Of a DNA stretch of 64,000 nucleotides, positions 17,514-55,407 are shown in pieces. The translations under genes and the position numbers were made by a program. The stretch's first letter is position 1, and every line of letters starts with the position of its first letter. The notes beneath the pieces are model-generated. The model was not told where the DNA came from. It searched no databases and saw nothing but the letters and a program-made list of their open reading frames with translations. Origin of the DNA: an uncultured virus (IMG/VR IMGVR_UViG_3300015607_000776) (Duplodnaviria > Heunggongvirae > Uroviricota > Caudoviricetes); IMG/VR virus record IMGVR_UViG_3300015607_000776; one strand, given 5' to 3'.

Positions 17514-17670
17514 AGACAATCTTCGGTTATTATCANNNNNNNNNNNNNNNNNNNNNNNNNNNNNNNNNNNNNNNNNNNNNNNNNNNNNNNNNNNNNNNNN
17601 NNNNNNNNNNNNNNNNNNNNNNNNNNNNNNNNNNNNNNNNNNNNNNNNTGATAATAACCGAAGATTGTCT
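17514..17670. repeat. 22-bp perfect inverted repeat flanking a 113-N gap
   Basis: agacaatcttcggttattatca-N113-tgataataaccgaagattgtct. Confidence 0.9.
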
Positions 17671-17675
17671 AAATT

Positions 17676-17752
17676 TGGTCCGGCTGACGGGAGTCAAACC
17701 CGCGAAGTCCGAGAGTGAAAGTCTCGTACCCTTATCACCAGGCGACAGCCGG
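17676..17752 (-). tRNA. tRNA-Glu(UUC)
   Basis: Loop CTTTCAC; CCA. Confidence 0.85.
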
Positions 17753-17764
17753 AAAATTAAATAG

Positions 17765-18648
17765 AAAAGGCTGAGATTACACCTCTTTGCATTCGGACTT
17801 TGAGCATTATAGCATCCCTTGCGAGGAGCCTTCTCTCGTTGTCCACTATCTGCCTTTCGGTCAAATAGTATCCGAACAATATCGCAGTTTAAAGTCATGC
17901 ATTAGACTTGACATTGTGTGATATTCTGCACTCTCTATCCCGTCAGTCTTGCGGACTGTTAAGCCTTGCGGGCCACGAAACTTTAAATACAAACAGATTT
18001 CACCTTGCGAGTTACGTCTGACTTGATTACCTTACGGCTCAAGTATTAGATATTTTTCACACACAACCGAGGCAGTCTTTACGTTTTTGACCTAAAAGGT
18101 TGGAATTGAACCAACAACCGTCTGCGTAAAATGCAGATGCTCTACCATTGAGCAACTTCTAACCTACTGCGATGTGCTGCCTCTGTTGCTGAATAATCTT
18201 TTGGATTACCCAATACAACACACCACGTACCTTTGGACTTGCGGTCTACTCAGTCATATTTCACGAGAAATGTCCTATTGTCCATTCCCCATTAATATTG
18301 CACTAAAGCCCTTGGATGCAACTCCTCGGACAATAATACTACCCTTTCTTGTACCAATTGACAAGTTGGTTTCATAGTGAAGTCAGCACCACCTGTTACT
18401 TTCCATCGACTTGCGTTTCCCTTTCGGGCGCTTAAATCAACGTTCTTTCCACTACACTTGCGTTATTGTTAGAACCACCCGTTTTATGAATGATCCCTAC
18501 CTCACGGTAGCAAGCAGGCTTGTATAGACGAACTATTGCTAGTGGTGGTATGTAGGCATTCCACCTTTGGGCACCTCACGATGCTTATTCTAACCCATGC
18601 ACCCGAAGGCACATGAGTAAAGGACACTATACTGCCCTTGTTTAGTAT
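17765..18648 (-). ncRNA. Probable GOLLD large ncRNA (~880 nt)
   Basis: No credible ORF; many GNRA/UUCG hairpins; embedded tRNA; 3' TAATCTCAG; own promoter; inside phage tRNA array; family call from recall. Confidence 0.75.
18091..18162 (-). tRNA. tRNA-like domain (UUU anticodon) embedded in the large RNA
   Basis: Full cloverleaf; loop ATTTTAC; no CCA. Confidence 0.7.
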
Positions 18649-22366: not shown

Positions 22367-23254
22367 ATGACAGAATGGTTATATAATGGGGTAATATTTA
22401 CACCCCCCGATCCAAATCCCTATGAAGGATTTATATATTTAATTGAGAATAATCTAACTAGAAAAAAATATATAGGCAAAAAACATTTTTGGACAAGGAG
22501 AAAGAACAAATCTCACGGAAAAAAAATAACTAAAGAATCTGATTGGAAAGAATACTATTCTTCATCGGAAGAATTAATGGAAGAAGTTATAAAGCAAGGA
22601 AAAGAAAACTTTACTCGGACAATTTTGCACTTATGCATCTATAAAAAACAAATGACCTTTCTGGAACAGAAAGAACAATGGGATAGGAATGTATTACTAT
22701 CCGATGATTATTATAACACAAATATAGGTGGTAAATTTTTTGTTAGAGAAAGAAAAATTTATGAGGCTAAAGAAAAAGAAATAACTAGAAAAAATGATAA
22801 ATGGAGAAAAATTAAAAGCGAAAAAATGAAAGGTGAAAATAATATTGCTAAACGGGAAGATGTTAGAGCAAAAATAAGTGAAAAGAAAAAAGGTAAAAAT
22901 AATCACCAATTTGGAAAATCTATTTCCAAAGATCATAAAAATGCATTACGCAATTCCGTGTGCAAAAAAGTGACTGATGGAACTAAAATTTGGAATAGTC
23001 AAACAGAATACAGAATAGAGCATAGCACCAAAACAAACCGTGGTAAAAACGGGAAAAATCGCATTGAAATAGATAAAAAAATTTACAATTCACTAAAGGA
23101 AGCTTCCAATATATTATCATGTTCATCTTCAAACATTGTAAAAATGCTGAAAAGGGGAGAAGCTAAATATTTAGATTTTGAGGAAAGAATAGTGCCAATG
23201 TCATCATATGAATATAATAAAAGACTAACAAAAGGCAAAATACGAGAGATATAG
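22367..23254 (+). CDS. GIY-YIG endonuclease with NUMOD3-type extension
   Basis: GFIYLI.N..T.KKYIGKK, ESDW..YYSS; late promoter TACTAAATA near 22306. Confidence 0.9.
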   Translation: MTEWLYNGVIFTPPDPNPYEGFIYLIENNLTRKKYIGKKHFWTRRKNKSHGKKITKESDWKEYYSSSEELMEEVIKQGKENFTRTILHLCIYKKQMTFLEQKEQWDRNVLLSDDYYNTNIGGKFFVRERKIYEAKEKEITRKNDKWRKIKSEKMKGENNIAKREDVRAKISEKKKGKNNHQFGKSISKDHKNALRNSVCKKVTDGTKIWNSQTEYRIEHSTKTNRGKNGKNRIEIDKKIYNSLKEASNILSCSSSNIVKMLKRGEAKYLDFEERIVPMSSYEYNKRLTKGKIREI

Positions 23255-39978: not shown

Positions 39979-40566
39979 TTACAGCTGCCAAGAGACCAGA
40001 GATTCACCTTTTACCAACCACATATCCATGTGGATTTTGGGATAGAAATGTCTTAGTTTTGAGATTGTGACCAGGTTTTTGATGCAATCATCGAAGACTT
40101 CTACTCTTTCAAACTTATGAGTGTCCACATACCTCTTGATTATAGCAAGTTTTGATATGTTTCCACCTGTTCTATATCTGCTTGATAGGTTTCCAGCACG
40201 TTCCACATGGGCCATATGGATCGGGAAATTATGATCATAGAATGTCTGTAGAAAGACTTCCCGATCATCAAAATCCTGTCGAGCAGTAAGCAATATGGTC
40301 TTACTGCATTCTGTATTGTTTTTGATCTTATCTTTTGCTAACTGGAAGATGGGATGAATAGGTTTAGCGGTATAACGGAAAATCTTAGCATCCCGAAATT
40401 CGGAGAAGTCAAATTCTTCCAAGTGATCCAATTTGTAGTGATTGAATTCTGTATTGGAAAGTATCTTCTGGACTTCTCCGTTTTTTCTTACTCTTATCTT
40501 TGCTTCCGTTGTGAATAGGGTATCGTCAATATCAAAAACTGTTAGTGTTTTCTTTATCATGTCCAA
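39979..40566 (-). CDS. HAD-family phosphatase
   Basis: VFDIDDTL, LTAR, VFDD. Confidence 0.85.
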   Translation of the reverse strand: MDMIKKTLTVFDIDDTLFTTEAKIRVRKNGEVQKILSNTEFNHYKLDHLEEFDFSEFRDAKIFRYTAKPIHPIFQLAKDKIKNNTECSKTILLTARQDFDDREVFLQTFYDHNFPIHMAHVERAGNLSSRYRTGGNISKLAIIKRYVDTHKFERVEVFDDCIKNLVTISKLRHFYPKIHMDMWLVKGESLVSWQL

Positions 40567-41086
40567 TTTTTCTGCCTACATTATAATGTTCTAATGCATT
40601 TTGGGGGTGGATGAAATAAGATTTAGTGCCATCATTGTACCACTTCCTACCTTTTCGTTGCTCTGAGTATAATTTTCTTTGTTCATCACTACATGTTTGA
40701 ACACCAATTTTACCTTTATTCCATGGTTCATTGGTTCTATTTTTTGCTGTTTGTTTGCAAGCTTCACTCACGTTTTTATACCACTCTTTATTATTAGATC
40801 GTTTCTTTATTGACAATTTATGTTTTTCACTATTTTTCATAGATTGTCTCATCTTATCTCTAATCTCTGGAGTTTGTAATTTTTGTATAGCAACTTTGGC
40901 AGCTTTATCTTGGGCCATTATCCAATTATTTAAGTATCCATGTTTTTGTGCATGTTCATCTGGTGTAAGCATTTCTAAATTTAAAGGATCATTGTTTTGT
41001 CTATTGAAGTCTTTATGGTGTATATGATATCCTTTTGGAATTTTTACATTATAATGTTCTTCATAAATTTTCCTATAATTCTTCAT
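40532..41086 (-). CDS. HNH homing endonuclease
   Basis: YRKIYE.H, IHHKD.NR.NN...NL, EH...H. Confidence 0.9.
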   Translation of the reverse strand: MKNYRKIYEEHYNVKIPKGYHIHHKDFNRQNNDPLNLEMLTPDEHAQKHGYLNNWIMAQDKAAKVAIQKLQTPEIRDKMRQSMKNSEKHKLSIKKRSNNKEWYKNVSEACKQTAKNRTNEPWNKGKIGVQTCSDEQRKLYSEQRKGRKWYNDGTKSYFIHPQNALEHYNVGRKIGHDKENTNSF

Positions 41087-42342
41087 TTTCCCACCCAGTT
41101 CTTTGATACATTGAAATTGTTGTGGGAAAAAGTTAGTCGATCCACTAACTTCACTACATTACCAAAATGATCGGTACAAACGAAACCTTCGGGATGTGTT
41201 ACCTTTAGACCATCTGCGTCTCTGATAAAGGTTCTGGTTACTCCCTGGACCTGTTCTAGTTTTCTGATTAACATATTCTTTGCGTCAATCATTTTGTTCT
41301 GTAGGTCAAACATGAGTTTAAGTTGCCCCATATTTGAATGGAAGAATGTCAGGACCTTTGTTTTTTCTGCTATCTTGATTTTCTTTGTGTCGTCTCTCTT
41401 TGCTGTACTGATAGCAAGATTCATCTTCTGTTCCACACTTCTGATCAATCCAGCAATGTGCTCAGATGTATTGGTGATCTTCTCACCTTCTCTGACTTTG
41501 GAATTGTTCCAGATTTCAATGTAGGAACTATATGTAGTGCTGGAACTAATCAACTGAAGGAATCTTGGTGATAGACTGCGGAACATATATCCCAATTCGG
41601 AAAGTATTGCATCCAGTCTCTTTGATTCTTCCAGAGTTAGTGTTGCAGTACCACTAACGTCCACGAAACTTGCGTCTCTATACCATACGTTTCTGCTGGA
41701 TTTGAATTGAGACACAGATACATTATAAGCTGCCTTTAGAGAATCCATGGTTGATCCATAGTATTCTGTATGCCAGACAACACCAATCTTTGCATTTCGG
41801 ATACTATTAGCAAGGTTTGATTTTGCTGGTACTGCATAGACGATTGTATTTGGTTGGAAAACAATACAGTCTTCCCCATCAATCTGTTCTGTGGATAGGT
41901 CATCGTGCGTGAACATAATATCCCCTTGCACGATTCCTCTAATTCCTAATTCAGGCAGATAGCGAAGTGCCACCTTCAACTTATCATTCAGACCACCACT
42001 TGGATGGTTTCTGTCAACATCAGCACTGGTGTAATTCAGTTTTGGTGTTGCATTAAACAAACTCTTAGTTGCAACGAAAAATCTTCCGTTCTCTGGGTTT
42101 GTTCCTGCAAAGATACTTGGTGCACCATCCCATTTAACAGTCAGATTAACTATCGAATGTGATGTATGCCCGGAAAGCATTTTCTTTAGGTTCTGAAGGA
42201 AGGTTATAGATGATCTGATTCCATTAACACCAGACTTGAAAATTTGATCTTCAAGGTGTGTCAGATGGAGATTTGCATCCTTTTTGCCTTCTTGTAAAAA
42301 TTCTGAGTATGTCAACATTACTTTTTCTTCCAATGGTCGCAT
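41083..42342 (-). CDS. ATP-dependent ligase-like nucleotidyltransferase (possible RNA ligase)
   Basis: TVKWDG, VQGD, EGFV, VKLVDR; CTS-like MLTYSEFLQE. Confidence 0.6.
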   Translation of the reverse strand: MRPLEEKVMLTYSEFLQEGKKDANLHLTHLEDQIFKSGVNGIRSSITFLQNLKKMLSGHTSHSIVNLTVKWDGAPSIFAGTNPENGRFFVATKSLFNATPKLNYTSADVDRNHPSGGLNDKLKVALRYLPELGIRGIVQGDIMFTHDDLSTEQIDGEDCIVFQPNTIVYAVPAKSNLANSIRNAKIGVVWHTEYYGSTMDSLKAAYNVSVSQFKSSRNVWYRDASFVDVSGTATLTLEESKRLDAILSELGYMFRSLSPRFLQLISSSTTYSSYIEIWNNSKVREGEKITNTSEHIAGLIRSVEQKMNLAISTAKRDDTKKIKIAEKTKVLTFFHSNMGQLKLMFDLQNKMIDAKNMLIRKLEQVQGVTRTFIRDADGLKVTHPEGFVCTDHFGNVVKLVDRLTFSHNNFNVSKNWVGK

Positions 42343-42530
42343 GTATCGTATTCTTTTATGTTCTTGGGATAAAAACGTCTCTCGTCTTCTCTTGTGAATT
42401 TGCAGTAACCGTTTCCATTATCCTCATTTATGTATGAATACTGACAATTCATGCAGTATTGTGCTTTGTTTGCAGATTCCAGTATTTCTTTTATTGCTTG
42501 CTTTCCAGTCTTGGTCTTTTTGGTCATCAA
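42318..42530 (-). CDS. Small Cys-rich protein
   Basis: CxxC...C...C. Confidence 0.5.
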   Translation of the reverse strand: MMTKKTKTGKQAIKEILESANKAQYCMNCQYSYINEDNGNGYCKFTREDERRFYPKNIKEYDTCDHWKKK

Positions 42531-43600
42531 CTATACTTTACGAATATGCTGCTATCGTCTGTAGCAGATGAACCATATCCAAATAACCAATTTGTTACCT
42601 TATTTTCCTTCTTATATTTTTGTAGTGTGAAGCAATAATGGACACCCAGAAACTTTGTCAACCACCACGTCTTGTCTTCCTTTTGTCCTTGTTTTGCCTG
42701 TTTTGTTAAACTGTCAATAGTTTCGCGAGAACCAGTAAGTGATTTATACATGGCGGCAAATTCTTTGAACTTGTGATCTGAAGGTTTTTCAATGTGGGTT
42801 TTAAATGCCGATGGATATAGCAATGCAGAAGAAGGAATTCCACATTCCACACATGCTCGCATTAGAACACCACCACCTATCTTTCCTCCTGCGGCAGTCT
42901 TGCCTTTAATTTCACCTTGCCATGCTCCTGGTTCAGCTCTGCTGCTGAATGTTCTTAACTGAATTTCACCTGGTTTTCTTCCACTCTGGAATTGAATATA
43001 AACGTCCTTGGAGTTTCTCATGTTATCTCCAATTCTGAATTGAGTGAAGTTTGCCTTTACCGGATCACCGTTGTTAAAAACATGAGAATGAGCAGCACCA
43101 CCTTTTTCCAATTTCTTAAGGGATACACCTATGAGTGTTCCTTTATTGAATTGTTCAAACAGGAATTCATTTAGATCACTTAGAGTATCCCAGTCACCAT
43201 TAATGCGAAGGCCTTTCTTGATAATCCATATATCTGCTGGATTCCATTTGTTTGCATTGGCAATATCAGTATGAGCCTTCAGTTTGTTAAATGCACTATA
43301 AATTTTGTTTACGTCTGGTCCACCTCTGGCAAAGATATAACCACCTTTCCTAAGCATGGGAAAATCAGAAAACAATTGGTTGGCAATGGTGATTGCACTG
43401 TATGCATAACCTTCATCAAGCTCCTTGACTGCTTTGTTTAGAGGTCTATCGCAGTCTGCGGCAGTTGTGTTTGATTGCTTGACTTGACTTATATCACTTA
43501 GGTTGGACCCCAGTGATTGTCTAGCTGCACAGGCATATGCATGAAGACTCTCGTTTAATGCTGTTATTTCTGCTCCTGCTCCAGAACCTGCACCGGCCAT
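42527..43600 (-). CDS. Putative PD-(D/E)xK-like nuclease
   Basis: NE, KWNPADIW, GVSLKK. Confidence 0.55.
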   Translation of the reverse strand: MAGAGSGAGAEITALNESLHAYACAARQSLGSNLSDISQVKQSNTTAADCDRPLNKAVKELDEGYAYSAITIANQLFSDFPMLRKGGYIFARGGPDVNKIYSAFNKLKAHTDIANANKWNPADIWIIKKGLRINGDWDTLSDLNEFLFEQFNKGTLIGVSLKKLEKGGAAHSHVFNNGDPVKANFTQFRIGDNMRNSKDVYIQFQSGRKPGEIQLRTFSSRAEPGAWQGEIKGKTAAGGKIGGGVLMRACVECGIPSSALLYPSAFKTHIEKPSDHKFKEFAAMYKSLTGSRETIDSLTKQAKQGQKEDKTWWLTKFLGVHYCFTLQKYKKENKVTNWLFGYGSSATDDSSIFVKYS

Positions 43601-43609
43601 GTTTTCTCC

Positions 43610-44899
43610 TTACATGAATTGTGACAATCCAAGACCTTTCTTGCTCAATTCATTACGGTTCTTACCGAAGCACCACATAGGTTCAATGTATATCTTATCA
43701 AAATGAGCCAACAACTTTTTCTTGTCGATATTCTTAGGTCTCTGCATGATTCTCATTCCAAGATTACCTAGGAATTTACAATCACTATATTTAGTTGTCA
43801 AGTCATTTATCAAATCATCCGAAGCATAATAGCGGGTGTTTTTGACCTTTGGATCCTGTATATTAACGATCTGGATACCACCATCGTTAAGTATTTCATA
43901 AGTTTTTCTATTGACAGGAAGATAGAAGTTATCTCTCCACTTTTCATAGGTATTGTATCGCTTCCATGACTGATCATCTTCATGGACACCACCAGAATTG
44001 TATAGTTCTGTTGAAAAGTATGGTGGTGAGGTAAAAGCACAATCTACCTTAGGCATGAAGTTATAGTTTAAGTCCTCCGCTGGAAGTCTGAAAAGATATA
44101 CAACCTTTTCTCCAATGCACGAAAAGAAGTCTTTGCTTTCTCTGATAACAGGTGTTCCACCAAGGATGGTTTCATACATTATGCATTGCTGTTTATACAT
44201 TTCAAAAGTCTGATCATTTGGATCACATCCATAGTATTCCTTTGCATTTGAGCAATAGAATCCTGCCAGACGATCACCCCAACCACATGAACTATCAAAA
44301 ATTACTTTTGAATTGGTTGCATTATATACATACTTTGCAACGTGTGGTTTAAACTGGGTAGCAATATATGTGCTTAGACGAAAAGCTCCAACGATTGATT
44401 GTTCATCCAGTTTGTCATTTCCAAGTCTCCACAATGCTAGAAAGACTGTTCTCAGGTCTTCCACGTTATTCCAGCGATAATGGGCACTCTTGAATCCGTA
44501 GGTATCACAGTTCAATCTAAGTTCCTGATTGAAATAGTTTGACACATCCAGATAACCATTACCCATTTGAACAACACCAAGACCGCAGTCATCGTAAGTA
44601 TGACCATAATCATCATACTTCTCAATTACTCTACCTTTGGTTTCCTCAAATGTCAGGATAAATTTGCTGATTGGCGCCTGCTTGAGATTGAAGAAATTGG
44701 TGATCATTTCCTCTTTGGTAATATGCAGGGTTGGTGCTTGTGGTTTGTGTTCCTTGATATATGCGATCAATTCACTTATGATTGTTTCCTTATCATAAGC
44801 GGAATTCAATTCTTCCCATTGCTTTGGGTTTAGGGAAGGAATTCCTTTTGCATCTTTGTTTTTAAGGAAGATATTTTGAATGTTTTCCATGATTTCCAC
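43610..44899 (-). CDS. Amino-type DNA methyltransferase
   Basis: FDSSCGWGDR, FTSPPYF; early promoter TTGACA-N17-TATAAT near 44919-44947. Confidence 0.85.
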   Translation of the reverse strand: MEIMENIQNIFLKNKDAKGIPSLNPKQWEELNSAYDKETIISELIAYIKEHKPQAPTLHITKEEMITNFFNLKQAPISKFILTFEETKGRVIEKYDDYGHTYDDCGLGVVQMGNGYLDVSNYFNQELRLNCDTYGFKSAHYRWNNVEDLRTVFLALWRLGNDKLDEQSIVGAFRLSTYIATQFKPHVAKYVYNATNSKVIFDSSCGWGDRLAGFYCSNAKEYYGCDPNDQTFEMYKQQCIMYETILGGTPVIRESKDFFSCIGEKVVYLFRLPAEDLNYNFMPKVDCAFTSPPYFSTELYNSGGVHEDDQSWKRYNTYEKWRDNFYLPVNRKTYEILNDGGIQIVNIQDPKVKNTRYYASDDLINDLTTKYSDCKFLGNLGMRIMQRPKNIDKKKLLAHFDKIYIEPMWCFGKNRNELSKKGLGLSQFM

Positions 44900-44954
44900 A
44901 TAATTTATCTAGTGTTGTATTATACATTAAACTGGTTGAAATGTCAATCAGGAA

Positions 44955-45980
44955 TTAATGCTTATGGGAACTAACATCTCCTACTCTACCACCTATTCCG
45001 GCATATGGAGAGGAACTTTTGTTCTTAATTCCTACTGACGTAATCTTTTTCTTGTCTCCATTGTGGTGGTGAGCATAAACGTTAAATGATGAACCGACGT
45101 GTTCCGCCTCATACTTCTTGACGGTCTTATGTTGTTCATCAAAATCCTTTGTAGGATTTGTTATGTGTGTAGTCCCTCTGTGTGCATCATAAGATGCTCT
45201 ATAAGGTTTGATAGTCGGACTCTTTTCTGCATCGATCATCTTTCTAATAAAGTCCGCTTTTTCGTGGTGCTTTAGTTTGTTGAATGAATCGGAATAATGT
45301 CCCGCGAGTTTTCTGTGCAACTCTTTCGAGTTTACCAATGAGGAAATTTTACCTTTATGTTTTTCAGGTAATGCTTTAAATGCAGCATGTTTGGATTTAT
45401 CTGATCCATTGCCTACCAAGTGACCAACTTGTTGCTCAACGTGATCTTTATGTTCTCCCATAGAACGGTATACAAATCCATGACTAGCTTTCAATGATTT
45501 GTTCAAGTCATTAATTCCAGGTGATCTTAGTGATGGTTTTGAACCAGATGTGGAATATTTGAGACTGAACCCGTGGTGCTTACCCTTATGGGAAACTGTT
45601 ATATCTGCGGTACCTTTGATACCTTCTTTACCAGTCAGTCTTTCCAGGTCCTTTGGTTTAGAGGTCCAATGGACTCTGGCAGTATGATCTAGTTCGTGTC
45701 CCGAATTCTTTAGGTGACCTACGATATGGTGAGCCATACGTCTTGCATGATGGTCGATATGGTCATGCAATTCTTTTCCTAATTTACCATGAAGTTTCTT
45801 GATTGCATGTTTTGGACTATCTCCCGATTCATCCGAGAAATGTTCCGGATAATGATCTTCGGGATGCCCGCCCTTTAGAATGTGTCCGATGTGTTTAGCA
45901 ACATGAATTTCAAAGGCCTTACCTGCTGAATCTCCACCTGATCCAGTCTTGACTTTCATTACCTTCCTACGCAGTTTCAT
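44955..45980 (-). CDS. Putative restriction-like PD-(D/E)xK nuclease, His/Lys-rich
   Basis: GKAFE, TADI, GFSLK; late promoter upstream. Confidence 0.55.
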   Translation of the reverse strand: MKLRRKVMKVKTGSGGDSAGKAFEIHVAKHIGHILKGGHPEDHYPEHFSDESGDSPKHAIKKLHGKLGKELHDHIDHHARRMAHHIVGHLKNSGHELDHTARVHWTSKPKDLERLTGKEGIKGTADITVSHKGKHHGFSLKYSTSGSKPSLRSPGINDLNKSLKASHGFVYRSMGEHKDHVEQQVGHLVGNGSDKSKHAAFKALPEKHKGKISSLVNSKELHRKLAGHYSDSFNKLKHHEKADFIRKMIDAEKSPTIKPYRASYDAHRGTTHITNPTKDFDEQHKTVKKYEAEHVGSSFNVYAHHHNGDKKKITSVGIKNKSSSPYAGIGGRVGDVSSHKH

Positions 45981-46074
45981 TCAAGTAACCTATTTGTTAT
46001 TTTTATGTTATTTGCATTTTACTAGTGTTTATGATATATATTTAGTATCAGATAAACTGATGGAGGAATATAAC

Positions 46075-46164
46075 ATGAAGACATGGACACAACCACAGGT
46101 TACAGAAACTTCAGTAGGTCTGGAAGTTACTAGTTATCTACCTGCTGATATTGACCTTATCTAA
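46075..46164 (+). CDS. pqqA: PQQ precursor peptide PqqA (29 aa)
   Basis: MKTWTQPQVTETSVGLEVTSYLPADIDLI: W-x-x-P and E-x3-Y; RBS GGAGG. Confidence 0.9.
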   Translation: MKTWTQPQVTETSVGLEVTSYLPADIDLI

Positions 46165-46167
46165 AAG

Positions 46168-46194
46168 AAAAGGGGGAAGAAATTCCCCCTTTTT
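46168..46194. terminator. Bidirectional intrinsic terminator
   Basis: aaaaggggga-agaaat-tccccctttt. Confidence 0.85.
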
Positions 46195-46636
46195 ATTCCT
46201 CGTCAAATTCAACTATGTGCATATTTAGTAATGTTCCGGTTATGTTGATATCCATCGGAAGAGTGGTGCCTTTCTTGAGAGTTATCCTATACTCGTTTCC
46301 TCTCCACATAAAATAGACACATAGGTCATTGTCTTTCAATGATCCAACTGGAATGTTAATATTCTGTTTTTGTTTGGAATCCAGCATCCTGAAGATTGAT
46401 GGTCCTGTTGGTGGCGCCTTGGGTGCTGGTTTGATTATCTCCAGATTTGTTTCTAGAAATTTGTATGCTGAATTTAGGTTCTTGAATAGTTCTGCTGCAT
46501 TGGGATTTTTGTTTGTGTCGGGGTGAAGTTCGATTGCTTTTCTTCGATAGATGGACTTCAATTCATCCTTTGTAACTCTATGATGTATTCCCATCACCTG
46601 CATAGCAAATTGCAAATTCATTCTTCCTTTCCCCAC
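46193..46636 (-). CDS. J-domain protein
   Basis: YRRKAIELHPD. Confidence 0.85.
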   Translation of the reverse strand: MGKGRMNLQFAMQVMGIHHRVTKDELKSIYRRKAIELHPDTNKNPNAAELFKNLNSAYKFLETNLEIIKPAPKAPPTGPSIFRMLDSKQKQNINIPVGSLKDNDLCVYFMWRGNEYRITLKKGTTLPMDINITGTLLNMHIVEFDEE

Positions 46637-46851
46637 TTACCTACTGGACATTCTGCATCTAGAAAGAACGTCTTATAGTCCATGAAGCAACCGCATCTTT
46701 CACACTTTGCTCGTTTTGGGATAAAGTGTTCACATTTCTTGCATATCTTAAGACGCTTCTCGGAAACCTTAGACCTTTTCTTGGATAGGTTCTCCAGTAT
46801 AGGTTTTATTTTCAATTCTGTGCCTTGAGTTTCTTGGTCATTACTCTGCAA
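46618..46851 (-). CDS. Small Zn-binding protein
   Basis: RLKICKKC...CERCGCFM...CPVGKW. Confidence 0.7.
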   Translation of the reverse strand: MQSNDQETQGTELKIKPILENLSKKRSKVSEKRLKICKKCEHFIPKRAKCERCGCFMDYKTFFLDAECPVGKWGKEE

Positions 46852-47081
46852 GCCTGTCTCAGCTTGCTGTAATCGGTAATCATTGCAGTTACCTGGGCAT
46901 CACTTGGCATTATTTTGATTTCTGCAGCTGCTCTTTCCAACTGAGATTTTGTGTAATTCTGAAGGACAGGGCACTTCGTAAGAACTAGATTAACCTGCTT
47001 TTGAGAAGGTGGTTTGATTGAAGCAGTAGCACAACCACCTAGTAGTAATGCCGCAAGTGTAACTGTCATAATTCTATACAT
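46812..47081 (-). CDS. Lipoprotein, probable o-spanin
   Basis: Lipobox LLGG|C; Cys pair. Confidence 0.65.
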   Translation of the reverse strand: MYRIMTVTLAALLLGGCATASIKPPSQKQVNLVLTKCPVLQNYTKSQLERAAAEIKIMPSDAQVTAMITDYSKLRQACRVMTKKLKAQN

Positions 47082-47093
47082 TCCATCCCCCTA

Positions 47094-47564
47094 TTATGAT
47101 GTTGGAAACTTTGGTAGTTTGTGTTTACCTGAGAGCAATTGACCTCTGAATCTCTGTAGGTTCTCTTTTTCTTGAGGTGTCTTATCTGTATTATGTATCA
47201 TACCTGTGACACCAGTTGCTGCCATTGCACTTCTAACTGGATTTGGTAATGAATGTCCTACTGCTCTTTTGACATTCCTACCAACTGTTTTCACTCTTGA
47301 TACGATACTTTCATTCATTTCCACTTTCTTCAATCTTGTGTAATAGTCTGGTAACTCCCACAAATGATGCAGTGCAATGTGTGTCGCTGTTTCATTATCT
47401 GTTGTGTGTTCGTGCTCAACCTTGATACCTTTTTCAAGTTGTTTGTGTATTTGTTCCAGTGAGACACCATGCTTTTTAGCAATTTCTTCCGGTGTCTTCA
47501 CTGGCTTCAAAATCGACTTTTGGCACGCTTCACTTAGGTTATTGAATGACTTGTAGGATAGCAT
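47094..47564 (-). CDS. Probable internal protein
   Basis: CTS-like start; GIKVEHEHT...HL.E.PDYYTRL. Confidence 0.65.
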   Translation of the reverse strand: MLSYKSFNNLSEACQKSILKPVKTPEEIAKKHGVSLEQIHKQLEKGIKVEHEHTTDNETATHIALHHLWELPDYYTRLKKVEMNESIVSRVKTVGRNVKRAVGHSLPNPVRSAMAATGVTGMIHNTDKTPQEKENLQRFRGQLLSGKHKLPKFPTS

Positions 47565-47791
47565 TAAAAAGTTCCGTCTTCAAGTTTCTTTATTGTTTCT
47601 TCTTTAGACTGGTTTTGTGCTAGAATTTCAGTTTGTTGTCTGTTAATTTCTATTTCATCTTTAGCACGATCTGCTTGCTCAAGTGTTCTACCTTGGTTAA
47701 TTAGCTCCTGAGTTTTAATAGCATCAAAGACTTTAAGGAGTCCTTGAACTACTCCACTCAGAAGACCTAGTATTACAGATAACCAAGACAT
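47564..47791 (-). CDS. Membrane protein, possible i-spanin
   Basis: N-terminal hydrophobic helix plus coiled coil. Confidence 0.5.
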   Translation of the reverse strand: MSWLSVILGLLSGVVQGLLKVFDAIKTQELINQGRTLEQADRAKDEIEINRQQTEILAQNQSKEETIKKLEDGTF

Positions 47792-47795
47792 TCAA

Positions 47796-48092
47796 TTAAA
47801 CCTTTGGTGTAGTTGTATCAGTTGGCTTAGCAACTGGTCCAGCTGTTCCTGGAGGTGTAGTTGTGATTGTGCGTAGTAGTGCCATAACAATAGCAGAACC
47901 TAGAGCAACTAGACCAGCCTGTGGATTATCGAATAATGCATTCCAATCTGTCATTTCAAGAATACCGAATGTAGCGACCATAAAGGAAATGATATATGTT
48001 CTCCAACCAACTAGCATATGTTTTACTCCTAATTTATTAATGTGATCCCATATTGGATCATCTATATTTATATCTTTAAGTAGTCTAGTCAT
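47796..48092 (-). CDS. Holin-like membrane protein
   Basis: GWRT, two TMs, LR.ITT.P; start probably at MLVGW. Confidence 0.55.
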   Translation of the reverse strand: MTRLLKDINIDDPIWDHINKLGVKHMLVGWRTYIISFMVATFGILEMTDWNALFDNPQAGLVALGSAIVMALLRTITTTPPGTAGPVAKPTDTTTPKV

Positions 48093-48117
48093 AAAAAATG
48101 GGGGATTTCTCCCCCAT
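48093..48117 (-). terminator. Intrinsic terminator
   Basis: atggggga-gaaa-tcccccat then T-tract. Confidence 0.85.
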
Positions 48118-48140
48118 TAGTATTAAGAACTTCTGATTTA

Positions 48141-49292
48141 TTATTCAGAAGGTGGTGTTTCTGCAACTGGTGCTGCTTCTTCTGCTGGTGCTTCTGGTTC
48201 AGCGGTTACTTCTGGTGCTGATTCAAAAGCTGATGAAACTGAGTCGAGAACTGTTGCTGCGTCTGTACCTGCAGCTTCTGCTGCTACTGGATCTGTCACA
48301 ACTGTTACGTCGGTCTGACCTTCATCGGTAGGAATTACTGTGGTTGCAACTTCACCTTCAGAAGTAGGAATGTTTACTGCTGGGTCTGCTACAACTTCTG
48401 CTGGTGTTGCTTCAACTGCATCAACAACTGCTGGTGCTGCTTCTTCAACTGTCACAGAAAGCTGTGGTTCAGGTGATGCTGGGTCAACTGTTTCCACCTT
48501 TGGTTCAACTGTTGCTTCAACAACTGGTGGTAGAACTGCTGGCATTGTAACTTCAACGGTTGGTACTGTTGGGTTATCTGCGTTTAGAACTACTGTGTGT
48601 GTATCAGGTGTTTCGGCTACTGCTGCTGCAAGTGAATCGGTTGACGACTTAAGGTCTGACACAAGTGCATCTAGTGCAGATGTATCAATTGGTGGCTCGC
48701 TAACTTTTGATGCTAGCTCGGCAGAGATAGATTCAAGTTCAGCTGTTACCTTGTGAATAAGTGCAACTGCTGATTCGTGAACTGTCTTTACACGACTGAC
48801 TTCAGCGGTTAGTGCTTCTAGGTTAAGTGCCATGTCGATTGTCCTCTCTTGTAAGTATTGAATTTGGTCTACTAGTGTGTTTAACTTTTCCATTGTTGCT
48901 ACATGCAAACTTGCCATTAGTGTAGCATCTCCGGAAGGTGGAGTATGAGATATTTCCATTCTGATAACTGCATCAGATTCATAGTCATCTTCAAAATCAT
49001 CTTCCTGATGGAATTCACTTGTATTTATGATTACAGGTGGAGTTTCAGGTTGTGGTGGTTCTTCTATGTTGAAAGGAATCTGATCTGCTACTTGGTCATG
49101 TCCATGACCTCTTCTTTTATTCTTAGGTTTTGCTACGATGTAAAGTGTTTTCTTCATGGTGTTTACGACCTTGGAAAAGAATGCTGCGATTATAGAAAAT
49201 AAATCTGTGAAGAAACGCATGAATAGTTTCCTTTGCCACACAAAGAAAGATAACCAAAATGTGACAACCTGCTTTGTTCTCTTTTCGTCCAT
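48141..49292 (-). CDS. Acidic Ala/Pro/Glu-rich late protein
   Basis: Coiled coil then low-complexity tail; start uncertain. Confidence 0.65.
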   Translation of the reverse strand: MDEKRTKQVVTFWLSFFVWQRKLFMRFFTDLFSIIAAFFSKVVNTMKKTLYIVAKPKNKRRGHGHDQVADQIPFNIEEPPQPETPPVIINTSEFHQEDDFEDDYESDAVIRMEISHTPPSGDATLMASLHVATMEKLNTLVDQIQYLQERTIDMALNLEALTAEVSRVKTVHESAVALIHKVTAELESISAELASKVSEPPIDTSALDALVSDLKSSTDSLAAAVAETPDTHTVVLNADNPTVPTVEVTMPAVLPPVVEATVEPKVETVDPASPEPQLSVTVEEAAPAVVDAVEATPAEVVADPAVNIPTSEGEVATTVIPTDEGQTDVTVVTDPVAAEAAGTDAATVLDSVSSAFESAPEVTAEPEAPAEEAAPVAETPPSE

Positions 49293-49354
49293 TTCGGCCT
49301 CTGTGAGGTTAACTAACCTCGCGAAAGTATTTATAACACCAGAGTATTGGGCCT

Positions 49355-49386
49355 AAAAAAAAGGTGGAGAAAATCTCCACCTTTTA
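49355..49386. terminator. Intrinsic terminator
   Basis: aaaaggtggaga-aaa-tctccacctttt. Confidence 0.85.
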
Positions 49387-49564
49387 GCTAAAATTTCAGT
49401 CTTTTTTCTAGTTCACGTTTGGCATATCTCAAGTCATTTATCTGTGTATGCCTATACTGTAACTTCTGTTTTAGTGTTAGGTTTTCCTCTCTAAGTTGTT
49501 GTACTTCATCATGTAGATTCCTAACAAGTTTAACCACCGTCTTTAGCATATAGTTCCCTTTTAG

Positions 49565-50038
49565 TTATTTCTTGGGGTCGGGAAGTCTTGATATTTTTGT
49601 TCCCTCAAGAGAAAGTGAATACATGAGTCCTTTGTTATCGAATACGAATGCAATAACGGAATCTTTGATGTTTTCCGTATCTAGTTTTGCACCTGCACCT
49701 AATGTGATAACCGCAACCGATGCATCAACTCCTATCTTCCAACCTTCAGAATATTTAAACTCTTTCAAAGCATTCTCAGTTAGGAATACAATAATGGTTG
49801 AATATGATTGTATACCCAATTGAAAACCAAATGAAGCGGAGATTAACTCGTAATAACTATCAATCTCCTTATTCACTACAAGTGCACCAGCACCATATTG
49901 TCCACCAAAACCGAAAAGACCTGCCTTGATGATTTCTGGAAATACTAGTACACCTGCTGCATCAACAATGAGTTTTTCGCCACCACCCGTAAAGCCATAA
50001 AACTTATTGAGTGTTTCTGTTACACTAGTCGATGCCAT
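49565..50038 (-). CDS. SYLF/Ysc84 lipid-binding domain protein
   Basis: GVLVFP.I.KAG..FGGQYG.G, S.GFQLG, KGLM..LSLEG.KI. Confidence 0.85.
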   Translation of the reverse strand: MASTSVTETLNKFYGFTGGGEKLIVDAAGVLVFPEIIKAGLFGFGGQYGAGALVVNKEIDSYYELISASFGFQLGIQSYSTIIVFLTENALKEFKYSEGWKIGVDASVAVITLGAGAKLDTENIKDSVIAFVFDNKGLMYSLSLEGTKISRLPDPKK

Positions 50039-50049
50039 TTTGGCCCCCG

Positions 50050-50418
50050 TTATTTATTTTTGCCTTTACCCTTTTCATCAATTACTGCACTCAAGTTATC
50101 AGTAGTTTCCTTGAGTTTTGAAGTCAAATTATCCACTTCTGCCGTAGCTGCTGCCACGTCAGTTTCACTTGATACAATACCTGCTGCTAATTGACCTTTT
50201 ACTTCCGAGAGACCATTACTTAATTCTTCGATGCGCTGTTTGAGTGAATCAAGTTCCTCAGAAAATTTCTGTTTGTATCCCTTGAGCTCTGCAACGTCTT
50301 CTCTTGTTTGAGTAGTTGGTTTCTTGTCCTTATCAAGTTTGATAGATTCACCGCCAACAATAAACCTCAAGTCTTGCATTTCTGCTCTAAGAGCAATGAT
50401 TTCGTCATAGTCAGACAT
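50050..50418 (-). CDS. Coiled-coil protein
   Basis: RBS GAGGAGG; late promoter-like CTAAATA. Confidence 0.65.
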   Translation of the reverse strand: MSDYDEIIALRAEMQDLRFIVGGESIKLDKDKKPTTQTREDVAELKGYKQKFSEELDSLKQRIEELSNGLSEVKGQLAAGIVSSETDVAAATAEVDNLTSKLKETTDNLSAVIDEKGKGKNK

Positions 50419-50456
50419 TTCTAAACACCTCCTCGTTTAACGATAGAAGTATTTAG

Positions 50457-51254
50457 TTATCTCACCTTTACGATTGCTCCAATATGTACCATAGATGCAA
50501 GATGCAATGCGTGTTCATTATACATGCGAATACACCCGGAACTTACTGCCTTGCCGATACTTCTGGGATCATTTGTTCCGTGAATACGGTATTCTGTGTT
50601 TCCCAAATAGATTGCAACTGCACCAAGAGGATTGCGGGGCCCACCAGGTACTGATACAGGAAGGTCTGGTTGTCTTGCTCTCATTGCTGCTGGTGGTGTC
50701 CATGTTGGCCAGTCAACAACCTTTGTGATTGGTTGTTCACCGTGCCAAGCAAACCCTTCTCTACCTACTGCAATAGGATATTCAAATGCCATATCCTGAT
50801 CTAGAATGTAATAGAGTTTCTTCCTATTGGTCATAATGATAACAGTACCTTCTGTTTCATCGTTTTCAAAAGGAACTAACTCTGGTTCCATTCTTTGAGG
50901 TTCATAACTTTCAAAATGCTTCTTGAAGTTTCTGCTACCAGGAGCATATAGGTATAACTGACCTTCTGGAATCTCACGATGATACCTTGGTTCAATATAA
51001 ATTCTTGGTTGCCAAGGTCGTGCTGAGTATCCAAAAATTCGAGGGTTCCAGTAGAAACCACTAGAACCCCCATGATCATCCCAACGATCATCCCATCCTC
51101 GATAATGCATTCCTTGAGCATAGGATGCAATCGTTGAAATTAAGAGAGCAAGCAATGCAATTAAAACAACTGCAAAGATCGTCCCAAAATATTTGTTTTC
51201 AATTTTCATTTCCGTTCCTTTCGATTTCCCATGCCCAGGATTTTTGAATTGCAT
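50457..51254 (-). CDS. L,D-transpeptidase (YkuD/ErfK family)
   Basis: YPIAVG, NPLG, RIHGT, SSGCIRM; signal peptide. Confidence 0.9.
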   Translation of the reverse strand: MQFKNPGHGKSKGTEMKIENKYFGTIFAVVLIALLALLISTIASYAQGMHYRGWDDRWDDHGGSSGFYWNPRIFGYSARPWQPRIYIEPRYHREIPEGQLYLYAPGSRNFKKHFESYEPQRMEPELVPFENDETEGTVIIMTNRKKLYYILDQDMAFEYPIAVGREGFAWHGEQPITKVVDWPTWTPPAAMRARQPDLPVSVPGGPRNPLGAVAIYLGNTEYRIHGTNDPRSIGKAVSSGCIRMYNEHALHLASMVHIGAIVKVR

Positions 51255-51498
51255 CTGTTACAAACTGTTTAAACTCTTCCGGATCCATAAGTCCTTCAAG
51301 AATATCTTGAACACTCTGCATTAGATCATTACCTACTTTATAGGAAAATAAAGCATCCTTAGATATGTCACCACCGAAATTCTTCCTCTTGAATTTAATA
51401 TCTTCATCAAGGAGTCTCTTATGAAGTTCCTTCAGGTAAGAAACAACAATTGTTTCCACCTTTGCTGAATCGACTTCAACCTCTAACTTAAATTCCAT
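51199..51498 (-). CDS. Hypothetical protein
   Basis: RBS GGAG. Confidence 0.55.
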   Translation of the reverse strand: MEFKLEVEVDSAKVETIVVSYLKELHKRLLDEDIKFKRKNFGGDISKDALFSYKVGNDLMQSVQDILEGLMDPEEFKQFVTDAIQKSWAWEIERNGNEN

Positions 51499-51506
51499 TA
51501 TGTCTC

Positions 51507-51980
51507 CTATGCATAGATGCTCTTTACTCTTAGCAACCTGTCAGCTGCGTAAGATGCTGCAAATGCTTCAGGCTTCACAAATGGAACGACGTTGCAAGTA
51601 CCCTTGATGTAACCAATTGCCTGGTCAATAACCAGGTTTGAAGCGTGCTTCTTATCTGGATTCAAGTCAAGATGTACTTCGATTTCCTTGTCTGTCAACT
51701 GAGCAAGAGTTAGGTACAATTCAGATACCTTATAAACTTCATTCATCAAACGTAAGTTTGGTTTCTTCTTGTTTGGAGTAAAGTCCACTTCAGTTTCGAT
51801 CTGACCAAAAATTTTGCAGCCATGAGCGCAATCTTTGTGGACAACGATCACACTATAAAAGTCTGCCATCCACTTGCCATGTCTCTTGTATGCAGTTGAG
51901 TCGCAACCAATGTAAATCTTACTTGTGTCGCTTGTTTCTGCAAGGAATTTTTCTATTTCTACAAAGTTAAATTTTCTCAT
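51507..51980 (-). CDS. RNase H-like YkuK family protein
   Basis: IYIGCDS, RLMNEV, EVHLD.N, KP.AFAAS..AD. Confidence 0.8.
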   Translation of the reverse strand: MRKFNFVEIEKFLAETSDTSKIYIGCDSTAYKRHGKWMADFYSVIVVHKDCAHGCKIFGQIETEVDFTPNKKKPNLRLMNEVYKVSELYLTLAQLTDKEIEVHLDLNPDKKHASNLVIDQAIGYIKGTCNVVPFVKPEAFAASYAADRLLRVKSIYA

Positions 51981-52104
51981 TTGTGAATTTCCTTCACTTA
52001 TATTTCCGTACTATTAACCCTGGCACAACCATCTATTATTCCTAAGATAGCAAAGAAAGTAAAAAATGCCAGGACTAATTTACCCATTTTTTACTTTCTT
52101 GAAT

Positions 52105-52197
52105 TGGTAGGCGTTAAGGGTGCTGCCCCCTTCCGTGAACGGTAATCTGCCGCCTAAGGGATTATAAGTTCCTCCCGCACAGCTGGTGCTAACGCCT
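52105..52197 (-). tRNA. tRNA with UAU anticodon (Ile), long variable arm, atypical T-loop
   Basis: Loop CTTATAA; T-loop GGCAGCA; CCA. Confidence 0.7.
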
Positions 52198-52207
52198 ATT
52201 ATTTCAT

Positions 52208-52789
52208 CTATTTAGTTCTTTGTTTGATAAATTGTGCCAACTCTTCCCAAGAAAGCGGTTGCATGTTAGTTTTCTCAACACAAACGTTTAAATACCAAGG
52301 ATCATTAATTTCCTTTTCATGTATATGACCATGGACATTAAACAATCTAGCTGCATTACCATTATTACCAGGATGCAATGGAAAATGCGAAAAGATTGTT
52401 GGTGCCGCAAAATCACTCTTAAACCTTCTTGATACCAAAATCTTGTCAAATGAATCAACCATTTCTTGTTTATCCATTTGGTCATCGTGGTTTCCCAAAA
52501 TTAACCTGATTTTTCCATGGAGTCTTTTTGCATAACTAATATCTCCAAAGTCACCAAGATGATACACCTTATCTCCTGGTTTGATAACAGAATTCCACAT
52601 TTCAACAATGTGTTCATCGTGGTGTTTAATGTCTCTGAAGTTTACTTCCTCAAAACCACCATCTTCTTTTCTTCTAATAAAACTACCTCTAAATGCTCTA
52701 CCGGTGGCACTAGTAAATTTGATGATATTAGAATGTCCGAAGTGAGTATCTGAAATTACCCATTTATTTACCACTTTTATCTCCGTCAA
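52208..52789 (-). CDS. Calcineurin-like phosphoesterase
   Basis: SDTHFGH, HLGD, GNHD, HGHIH. Confidence 0.9.
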   Translation of the reverse strand: MTEIKVVNKWVISDTHFGHSNIIKFTSATGRAFRGSFIRRKEDGGFEEVNFRDIKHHDEHIVEMWNSVIKPGDKVYHLGDFGDISYAKRLHGKIRLILGNHDDQMDKQEMVDSFDKILVSRRFKSDFAAPTIFSHFPLHPGNNGNAARLFNVHGHIHEKEINDPWYLNVCVEKTNMQPLSWEELAQFIKQRTK

Positions 52790-53024
52790 CTGTAATTTGG
52801 AACAAAAGTTTTGGCGTTCTCATAAAGAAAGTGTGTCTATAACACTCAATATTGTAAGTACCATCTGCTTTTGTTACGTGATCCCTGCCACCCATTGAAT
52901 GACAACGACCGATCTGATCATATACTTTCATGGGAGTATGAGTACCCAACATTGCTGTTAGGCCTAACATAAACACCGATATGAGAATGCCCAAAGCAAA
53001 AAGTGCTGAAACTACGTCTTTCAT
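52764..53024 (-). CDS. Single-TM protein
   Basis: N-terminal TM, C...GG...C. Confidence 0.55.
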   Translation of the reverse strand: MKDVVSALFALGILISVFMLGLTAMLGTHTPMKVYDQIGRCHSMGGRDHVTKADGTYNIECYRHTFFMRTPKLLFQITVDGDKSGK

Positions 53025-53830: not shown

Positions 53831-53831
53831 A

Positions 53832-54110
53832 TTATTTTCCTGTTAGTAAATTGTGATTCCATTTCTCCAAAACAAATTCCGGAGATTCTAATTTATCTTT
53901 TGCTAGGCAGACTGCGACCAATTCACCAATTTCACCATTGGGTAAAACCAATGCATATGATCCACGCTTCTCAGCACAAATTCTCATTGTTTCATTTATT
54001 CTTGCTTTCGTCGCTTCGTCACCATCATTATTTCGCAACCAAATAGTTCCTGAAACAATAACAACTGCACCAACTAAAGCAGTAATTACAACGTCACCTA
54101 ATGTTCTCAT
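53832..54110 (-). CDS. Single-TM protein
   Basis: N-terminal TM, Cys pair. Confidence 0.55.
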   Translation of the reverse strand: MRTLGDVVITALVGAVVIVSGTIWLRNNDGDEATKARINETMRICAEKRGSYALVLPNGEIGELVAVCLAKDKLESPEFVLEKWNHNLLTGK

Positions 54111-54143
54111 TTCTTTTTCCTCTAAGCATCTTTATTTAACATT

Positions 54144-54182: not shown

Positions 54183-54189
54183 AAATTTT

Positions 54190-54766: not shown

Positions 54767-54790
54767 ATGTATTTATGCCTTAGACTACAT

Positions 54791-55400: not shown

Positions 55401-55407
55401 ATAATCC

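Follow-up and report, generated by a model that had tools for sequence, protein, structure and literature searches.

The locus analysed here raises the question of why a phage should carry, alone and against the direction of its genome, the gene for the precursor peptide of the cofactor pyrroloquinoline quinone (PQQ). Synthesis of PQQ uses up one PqqA peptide for each molecule of the cofactor, while PqqB-E act repeatedly. A first-pass annotation of a 64,000-nucleotide stretch of an uncultured virus (IMG/VR record IMGVR_UViG_3300015607_000776; the whole stretch is referred to as the window) proposed such a stand-alone pqqA as its own transcription unit. Our reading, which we hold with reasonable though not strong confidence, is that this is a predicted working pqqA in a self-contained antisense cassette of a T4-like phage, that it feeds the PQQ line of the host, and that this host is likely a Hyphomicrobium-like methylotroph of sludge.

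The product of the ORF, MKTWTQPQVTETSVGLEVTSYLPADIDLI (29 aa), matches the Pfam family PqqA (PF08042) with 33 bits against a cut-off of 21.1, covering positions 1-19 of the 19 profile positions, as well as the NCBIfam equivalog TIGR02107 with 29.4 bits against a cut-off of 20. The 29-aa ORF and its peptide are thus as first described, and the proposed comparison with PqqA HMMs gave a match. The peptide contains the stretch E17-V-T-S-Y21 with the two residues that become PQQ, as is characteristic of the PqqA family, its leader carries the W-x2-P element (W4, P7), and its length lies within the range of about 20-40 aa of PqqA peptides. Among the matches listed, 127 full-length bacterial peptides have this E-x3-Y core too. 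A protein search with the phage peptide returned 22 candidates at E<=0.01, all of them PqqA-like and 21 carrying PF08042; apart from the peptide's own cluster these are 69-83% identical to it. This cluster, the public protein cluster P0001 (4 member sequences, 32 contigs, PF08042 precomputed), holds a 34-aa form beginning at ATG 46060, so that the gene is not always short enough to be missed by gene callers, as had been supposed. The 29-aa start is preferable to the 34-aa one in view of the ribosome site and of the bacterial homologues. An ORF this short, contained moreover in a longer 71-aa frame from TTG 45949, might be suspected of having arisen by chance or of being a mis-framed stretch, but two curated models score above cut-off along its whole length, 22 of 22 protein-search candidates are PqqA-like (21 with PF08042), and the placement of the ribosome site suits the 29-aa start. 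We give this suspicion practically no weight and consider it refuted by PF08042, TIGR02107 and the protein-search matches; judged by its sequence, the ORF is a genuine PqqA. The features of the locus are collected in Table 1.

Table 1. Features at and around the phage pqqA gene (positions in the window).
Feature	Position	Strand	Description
pqqA	46075..46164	+	29 aa; ATG 46075, TAA 46162-46164; Glu17 and Tyr21 form the E-x3-Y pair
Sigma-70-like promoter candidate	46012..46040	+	TTGCAT 46012-17, 17-nt spacer, TG 46032-33, TATATA 46035-40
Ribosome-binding site GGAGG	46062..46066	+	8 nt 5' of ATG
Two-way intrinsic terminator hairpin	46167..46194	both strands	12 pairs, 4-nt loop, A-run before, T-run after
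DnaJ (J-domain) protein, convergent neighbour	46193..46636	-	147 aa; Pfam DnaJ 51.5 bits
His-rich protein, divergent neighbour	44955..45980	-	341 aa; no Pfam or PHROG match
Methylase-like ORF	43610..44899		beside the 341-aa ORF; N6_N4_Mtase 24.5 bits, under the cut-off of 26.7
SegE-like homing endonuclease	22367..23251	+	sole + ORF besides pqqA with family support among those scanned
1376-bp block	45233..46608		absent from contig C128 of genome bin G001 (blastn and junction alignment)

The window is phage DNA of 31-41% GC (38% overall). A scan with PHROG and Pfam covered 85 chosen ORFs, 83 on the minus and 2 on the plus strand. The long ORFs tile the minus strand and all 26 tRNA genes lie on it, which bears out the earlier statement that pqqA, antisense on the plus strand, runs counter to the genome-wide direction. 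The scanned ORFs include T4 RNase H, primase, ThyX and dCMP deaminase; the window further encodes a ribonucleotide reductase of 1426 aa with a LAGLIDADG intein, an NAD-salvage set (NAMPT, NMNAT-Nudix, Macro, NADAR) and several homing endonucleases of the SegE-type GIY-YIG and HNH classes. Phage families flank pqqA on both sides for tens of kb, the location expected of a viral auxiliary metabolic gene (AMG). T4-type genes are represented by T4 RNase H, primase and Seg, and the 64 kb contain no structural genes; Gp23 turned up solely on other contigs of the bin G001, introduced below. The cassette lies in the early/replication region of a probable T4-like phage. A comparison of the DUF6267 protein puts Phage C48C1 and Methylophilales phage Melnitz nearest among cultured phages (43-44% aa), followed by a Stenotrophomonas phage, cyanomyophages and Pelagibacter phage HTVC008M. 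For the 341-aa neighbour, structure-atlas rows give TM values of 0.65-0.74 to clusters partly annotated with RE_HaeIII, and its fold may resemble that of HaeIII-type restriction endonucleases, which we treat as a lead only.

The same phage was met repeatedly. IMG/VR record G002 (26.7 kb) is 100% identical across 45500-46700, IMG/VR contig L127 is 99.9% identical to the window along 15.3 kb, and L131 (IMG/VR) and L349 (a metagenome contig) represent the same phage again. The genome bin G001 has 58% of the window's words in common. It was rejected as a host: its RpoB is 86-88% identical to that of MAGs titled Paceibacteria/Paceibacterota (Patescibacteria), it contains three different Gp23 capsid genes, and searches of the bin for pqqA, pqqC, pqqE and PQQ alcohol dehydrogenase gave no match. 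Given the Patescibacteria RpoB and the three Gp23 genes we read G001 as a bin that collected phage contigs. One of these, C128, is otherwise 95-99% identical to the phage of the window and lacks a 1376-bp block in which lie pqqA, the greater part of the DnaJ ORF and, of the 341-aa ORF, the 5' three quarters. Ahead of the gap C128 has an intact 77-aa ORF; what follows the gap is the remaining tail of the 341-aa ORF, with no ORF of at least 60 aa. To judge from the junction, pqqA appears to have been lost by deletion together with the DnaJ gene and the larger part of the 341-aa gene, although an assembly artefact could leave the same picture; a natural variant without pqqA would mean that, in some settings at least, the phage can do without it.

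No other pqq gene and no PQQ-dependent dehydrogenase was found among the 85 ORFs scanned in the window, as had been stated for the pqq genes, and where the search was extended to further sequence, pqqC, pqqE and a PQQ dehydrogenase were absent from G002 and the G001 bin as well. The phage gene accordingly lacks the linkage to pqqBCDE within this sequence. Such linkage is not obligatory for a PqqA, because H. denitrificans has three unlinked copies.

The pattern of the 29-aa type occurs in IMG/VR on six contigs only (L126-L131). L130 (35.7% GC) belongs to a relative of the phage of the window, with a nucleotide identity of 68-72% in the stretches that match. Its gene order is the same, with DUF6267, a Seg-like gene, a 378-aa ORF and a methylase-like gene, all on the minus strand, followed by pqqA on the plus strand, and it is without the restriction-enzyme-like gene that adjoins pqqA in the window. 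A metagenome contig obtained by a scan with the phage leader, L350 (2.8 kb, 38% GC), has only the pqqA cassette in common (76% nucleotide identity) and carries a QueC gene upstream of pqqA. L126 and L128 (56-63% GC) encode a third peptide type of 29 aa ending in SAEIDTFN, beside ORFs without Pfam matches. The PqqA match on L129 (60% GC) lies beside PPK2 and a histidine kinase, neighbours that make this contig probably bacterial DNA.

A comparison of pqqA in the window with that of L130 allowed us to assess how the gene has evolved. The coding part aligns and the flanks do not; synonymous differences number about 12 and non-synonymous ones about 10 (dS 1.04, dN 0.17, dN/dS 0.16), and over residues 13-29 dN/dS drops to 0.10, with 8 synonymous and 4 non-synonymous differences. 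In both phage genes GC3 is 0.24, whereas 131 bacterial genes of this type average 0.76 (range 0.35-0.97), and the best nucleotide identity of the phage gene to any of these 131 copies is 74%. Phage pqqA is thus under purifying selection on the peptide and has been recoded to the base composition of the phage. Going by the divergence from L130, GC3 and the best identity of 74%, pqqA has long been resident in low-GC phages, selected on the peptide.

The signals around the gene were then as follows. A GGAGG ribosome-binding site is present where it had been described, and a Shine-Dalgarno sequence, AGGAG or AGGAGG, occurs at the equivalent place in L130 and L350. The terminator that had been proposed is supported by folding: the hairpin has a free energy of -18.7 kcal/mol (z -3.31), with 1 of 200 shuffles folding equally well, and among the 7 terminator-like rows between 45500 and 46700, where 0.9 are expected, 6 are this hairpin on either strand. 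It borders directly on the stop codon of the convergent DnaJ-domain ORF, is common to pqqA and that ORF, and can therefore end transcription from either side. L350 pqqA has a hairpin terminator of its own. Of the promoter claim, the motif TTGCAT-N17-TATATA holds and its strength does not: it is absent from the list of a consensus promoter/terminator scan of 45500-46700, and the best promoter score within 100 nt upstream of pqqA is 9, equalled by 2465 of 5000 shuffles and attained in 26% of 100-nt windows of the same phage. By consensus the candidate is weak and not above chance. Being antisense to all its neighbours, pqqA would require a transcript start of its own. Just 5' of pqqA, the two relatives carry sigma-70-type promoters with a 17-nt spacer and a TGn extended -10 element, namely ATGACA-N17-TGgTATGAT in L130 (score 12, 4 of 5000 shuffles) and TTGATC-N17-TGtTATAAT in L350 (score 12, 6 of 5000 shuffles), and their strength at the equivalent place lends indirect support to a pqqA promoter in the phage of the window. 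The design of the cassette, with promoter region, Shine-Dalgarno sequence, 29 codons and terminator, thus appears conserved even though the promoter of this phage is weak.

Contigs from four RNA-library runs touch the locus. Only one of them reaches pqqA, a 194-nt contig of run X18 (depth 2.7) that covers 45943-46127 and with it the first 53 nt of the gene; run X15 gave contigs at 45400-45982 and 46705-46800, and runs X17 and X20 cover parts of 46373-46708; these contigs carry neither strand nor level, and DNA is possible in such libraries.

To place the peptide among its bacterial counterparts, species-representative genomes were scanned with the pattern GLEVTSYLPA[DE]ID, which occurs in at least 123 stretches. 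Among the 80 titled rows, 56 belong to Hyphomicrobium, Hyphomicrobiaceae or Filomicrobium; the others are titled Hyphomicrobiales (1), 'uncultured Alphaproteobacteria' (15), 'Proteobacteria' (4) or belong to four other taxa (Terriglobales, Deltaproteobacteria, a beta proteobacterium and Rubripirellula). The 127 full-length bacterial peptides among the matches listed have 20-24 of 29 residues in common with phage PqqA and come from loci of 44-65% GC, and the exact C-terminus GLEVTSYLPADIDLI was found in 3 stretches (only 2 Hyphomicrobium MAGs). Multiple copies are present in Hyphomicrobiaceae, with 8, 6 and 3 PqqA matches over cut-off in three genomes, in keeping with a demand for the precursor. 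For H. denitrificans, a report describes five copies of pqqA, of which three stand alone, and an expression that tracks PQQ synthesis (PMC9851590). By its residues, the phage peptide is of the Hyphomicrobium/Hyphomicrobiaceae type. The leaders differ, reading VREQE or VREQN in bacteria and VTETS, VTEIS or VAEAS in the phage clade, and processing of the phage peptide by host enzymes is for this reason an assumption.

Viral pqqA genes are otherwise of another type. A scan of IMG/VR with a generic PqqA-core pattern yielded at least 120 stretches, and the peptide could be recovered from 119 of 120 listed loci, all of 23-25 aa and from loci of 28-47% GC. All of the 15 peptides submitted to Pfam, 8 of them from IMG/VR loci of the 23-aa type, pass the PqqA cut-off. 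Among GenBank phages, tblastn with the 29-aa peptide gave only matches of E>=5 and megablast with 43600-48100 gave none, while tblastn with the 23-aa type retrieved 12 records, 10 of which are cultured Methylophilales/Methylophilaceae phages; P19250A, MEP301, Venkman, MEP401, MEP402 and four Melnitz records are the named carriers. The 23-aa PqqA is present in all 10 records. Six of them have no annotated feature beneath the match; in Melnitz the sole annotated CDS at pqqA lies on the opposite strand, and in P19250A the gene falls within an unannotated gap. With pqqA missing or mis-stranded in GenBank records of methylotroph phages, surveys of viral auxiliary genes undercount it. In bacteria, the 23-aa type belongs to Methylophilaceae (Methylotenera, Methylophilus, Methylopumilus, Methylobacillus, OM43), with at least 123 stretches and few titled otherwise. 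Since the cultured phages and the Methylophilaceae both have the 23-aa type, the phage peptide type matches the host family in cultured systems.

Which host the phage of the window infects was approached from its habitat, its tRNAs and its peptide. Eight studies, all on wastewater, activated sludge or sludge, supplied the DNA runs with 96-100% of the sampled words; 6 of these studies are possible sources of the 64-kb DNA itself, and the other two are both activated sludge. Matches to the phage tRNA-Gln(CTG) at 55327-55400 occur in 153 of 201 Hyphomicrobium-family genomes, with up to 91% identity, and in 157 of 401 genomes of the same class, with up to 89%, the latter tally including two unpublished genomes, G446 and G246, with no claim resting on either individually. 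As the two values lie at 91% and 89%, Hyphomicrobiaceae are not singled out, and the tRNA favours an alphaproteobacterial link to no particular family. The matches listed for positions 40001-60000 against the 201 Hyphomicrobium-family genomes consist of the tRNA, pqqA and one weak gene match, with no CRISPR-spacer-like or prophage link among them. At 38% GC the phage is far below the 44-65% of the bacterial loci with the same peptide type, a large gap for a phage/host pair. A GC content well below that of the host is known from T4-like phages of high-GC Alphaproteobacteria, and 26 tRNAs would suit a phage whose codon use is unlike that of its host. The earlier guess of an alphaproteobacterial methylotroph is backed by the peptide type, which is Hyphomicrobium-like (56 of 80 titled rows), while the host itself we only infer; from these sequences an alphaproteobacterial methylotroph is plausible, and for Hyphomicrobiaceae in particular we put the chances at slightly better than even.

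The proposed function could nevertheless be right and the host wrong. The phage may infect another PQQ-making bacterium of sludge, for example one of the Methylophilaceae, with the peptide as the trace of an old transfer. The nearest cultured relatives by DUF6267 (C48C1 and Methylophilales phage Melnitz, 43-44% aa), a GC content of 38% that is nearer to low-GC methylotrophs than to Hyphomicrobium loci, and the lack of a spacer or prophage link to Hyphomicrobiaceae among the matches listed for 40001-60000 in 201 genomes all lean this way. On the other hand, the matching records of cultured Methylophilales/Methylophilaceae phages have the 23-aa and not the 29-aa type in 10 of 10 cases, and a PqqA must be recognised by the PqqD and PqqE of the host. 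The tRNA-Gln matches alphaproteobacterial genomes, with nothing longer than 16 nt in the 3 Methylophilaceae genomes compared, and the 26 tRNAs would fit a mismatch in codon use with the host. We therefore regard a different host as the less likely solution, at roughly one chance in a few, and a Hyphomicrobium-like alphaproteobacterial methylotroph of activated sludge as the probable one. During infection of such a host, shutdown of host transcription by a lytic phage would make the PqqA precursor the first part of the pathway to run out. By producing PqqA from a host-type promoter, the phage could keep the host line of PqqD, PqqE, PqqB and PqqC supplied, and with PQQ available the periplasmic PQQ-dependent methanol and alcohol dehydrogenases would stay loaded and provide energy through the infection.

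Two further explanations deny the gene this role. The peptide could act as a decoy that occupies PqqD/PqqE without yielding PQQ, or have a role unrelated to the cofactor; the leader of the phage clade, with TETS, TEIS or AEAS in place of REQE/REQN, and the absence of any other pqq gene or PQQ-dependent enzyme from the window, G002 and G001 would be in keeping with this. An inhibitor, however, has no need of an intact E-x3-Y, and here neither cross-linking residue has changed and the GLEVTSY core is complete, residues 13-29 showing 8 synonymous and 4 non-synonymous differences; bacteria, moreover, keep stand-alone pqqA expressed along with PQQ synthesis (PMC9851590). Alternatively, pqqA could be a passenger without a role, recently captured host DNA on its way out, as might be read from the natural variant that lost it in a 1376-bp deletion and from its variable spot adjoining a restriction-enzyme-like gene that L130 lacks. 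Against recent capture stand a composition that is fully phage-like (GC3 0.24 against 0.76), a dN/dS of 0.16 at a dS of about 1, the same position and strand in L130, where matching stretches are 68-72% identical, and a third low-GC contig, L350, that shares the cassette only. To both the decoy and the passenger we assign a very small probability, and a supply of PqqA to the host line remains our preferred function.

Phage-borne pqqA as such is not new, and the novelty implied by the first-pass annotation was overstated: the gene was published in 2020 for T4-like phages of Lake Baikal with predicted Methylophilaceae hosts, where VP_266 carries PqqA and a viral methanol dehydrogenase (Coutinho et al., 2020, PMC7678222), and virus-encoded pqqA, pqqD and pqqE are listed in a 2026 study of reservoir sediment (PMC13188868). 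Among openly accessible articles, a literature search found phage pqqA in these two sources only, and earlier mentions may exist, for example in the papers on P19250A, Venkman or the MEP phages; in the accessible text of the Melnitz paper PQQ is mentioned only as a medium supplement (PMC9004378). What the present analysis adds is a second phage peptide type, a probable alphaproteobacterial host, an antisense cassette, evidence for selection and recoding, and a natural deletion variant. Three phage peptide types can now be told apart, the 23-aa Methylophilaceae type, the 29-aa Hyphomicrobium type and the third 29-aa type on L126 and L128 (56-63% GC). A broader reading, which we offer tentatively and would not yet back at even chances, is that pqqA alone, and not the PQQ enzymes, is the signature AMG of phages of PQQ-dependent methylotrophs, acquired independently at least three times with a type that matched the host each time, so that the peptide reads out host range, and that the 64-kb DNA is the first genome piece of a T4-like Hyphomicrobium phage from activated sludge. 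For uncultured phages, the type of the peptide could also give an inexpensive indication of the host. Provided that host enzymes process the phage peptide, methylotroph phages would tune methanol oxidation via the one component that the synthesis of the cofactor consumes. In methanol-fed denitrifying sludge, Hyphomicrobium is of importance to the removal of nitrogen.

Compared with known systems, the phage of the window resembles Baikal VP_266 in carrying PqqA on a low-GC (35% in VP_266) T4-like methylotroph phage, where it was read as an AMG for methanol oxidation (PMC7678222). The Baikal phages differ in that they are reported to have a methanol dehydrogenase, and radical SAM proteins with them (PMC7678222), whereas neither a PQQ dehydrogenase nor pqqC or pqqE was found in the window, G002 or the G001 bin; the peptide here is of the 29-aa Hyphomicrobium type and comes from wastewater sludge, a comparison that leaves the Baikal peptide sequence aside. 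The cultured Methylophilales/Methylophilaceae phages likewise have a stand-alone pqqA of the host's own type, and in P19250A and Melnitz it scores above the Pfam cut-off, but theirs is the 23-aa type and in Melnitz and P19250A it is co-directional with the upstream genes and not antisense. On the bacterial side, the stand-alone pqqA of H. denitrificans is of the same peptide type and a single small gene away from pqqBCDE (PMC9851590). The pqqA genes of Hyphomicrobiaceae differ from the phage gene in a GC3 of about 0.76 against 0.24 and in the leader VREQE against VTETS, an exchange that, on the tentative broader reading, could be an adaptation for competing with host PqqA for PqqD. A parallel in working logic is psbA of cyanophages, by which the phage carries the fastest-consumed component of a host energy pathway; protein and pathway are unrelated to PqqA and PQQ, and the likeness is one of analogy only.

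The nearest genome to the window among those compared is G001, a Patescibacteria bin whose contig C128 represents the same phage. Alignment of this contig to the window revealed that it lacks a block of 1376 bp (window 45233-46608), while the remainder of the phage contig is 95-99% identical. The absent block contains pqqA, the ORF with a DnaJ domain and most of an ORF for a 341-aa protein, and its absence from C128 is due either to a deletion in a natural variant or to an artefact of assembly. The bin holds three different T4-like major capsid genes (contigs noted: C232, C90, C108 and C161). It contains several phages and is unfit for host inference.

The ORF for the 341-aa protein lies next to a methylase-like ORF, which matches the N6_N4_Mtase profile at 24.5 bits, under the cut-off. 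The 341-aa protein is rich in histidine, and its Atlas model is similar to restriction endonucleases of the HaeIII type (TM 0.65-0.74), a resemblance to be read as a lead only. The two ORFs may form a phage restriction-modification pair. In L130, a contig of a related phage with pqqA in the same gene order, the gap matching this region of the window contains no ORF of at least 70 aa.

Location of selected features in the window
Feature	Coordinates	Strand	Content or basis
Seg-type GIY-YIG	3243-3560; 11849-12403; 16627-17007; 20042-20599; 54251-54766		
Seg-type GIY-YIG	22367-23254	+	
HNH endonucleases	12747-13091; 40532-41086		
Ribonucleotide reductase ORF, 1426 aa	24305-28585	-	intein inside, with LAGLIDADG homing endonuclease domain
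tRNA cluster, 23 genes	within 9064-21082	-	homing endonuclease genes interspersed
3 further tRNA genes, around 55 kb	within 54925-56225	-	
Methylase-like ORF and 341-aa protein ORF	43610-45980	-	profile score; Atlas model
Envelope-type phage genes	49565-51254	-	Ysc84-domain protein; YkuD L,D-transpeptidase domain protein
NAD-salvage and ADP-ribose block	56645-60379	-	NAMPT; Macro domain protein; NADAR domain protein; NMNAT-Nudix fusion

The load of selfish elements in the window is unusually high, with genes or fragments of Seg-type GIY-YIG homing endonucleases alone numbering at least six. All 26 tRNA genes are encoded on the minus strand. Comparison with genomes of the Hyphomicrobium family gave at most 91% identity for tRNA-Gln(CTG) (55327-55400) and a nucleotide match of 69-72% for a segment within the envelope-type gene region (50494-50636). 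Inside the ORF at 17533..17898, positions 17536-17648 read as 113 consecutive Ns, which are either masked or unresolved bases.

Stand-alone pqqA genes are also found in other viral and metagenomic records. The pqqA cassette of the metagenome contig L350 (2791 bp, 38% GC) includes both a strong promoter and a dedicated terminator and directly follows a QueC gene, and the contig has nothing in common with the window beyond this cassette. In the cultured methylotroph phages Melnitz (MZ577097.1, 76137-76205) and P19250A (KX815270.1, 28085-28153), pqqA scores above the Pfam cut-off and is unannotated, a hypothetical CDS being annotated over the Melnitz gene on the opposite strand. A third stand-alone type of PqqA, with 29 aa and the C-terminal sequence SAEIDTFN, is encoded on two IMG/VR contigs, L126 (265,895 bp, 56% GC) and L128 (63% GC), amid ORFs without Pfam matches. 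This type probably resembles that of Methylobacterium, and its source may be large phages that infect a different alphaproteobacterial methylotroph.
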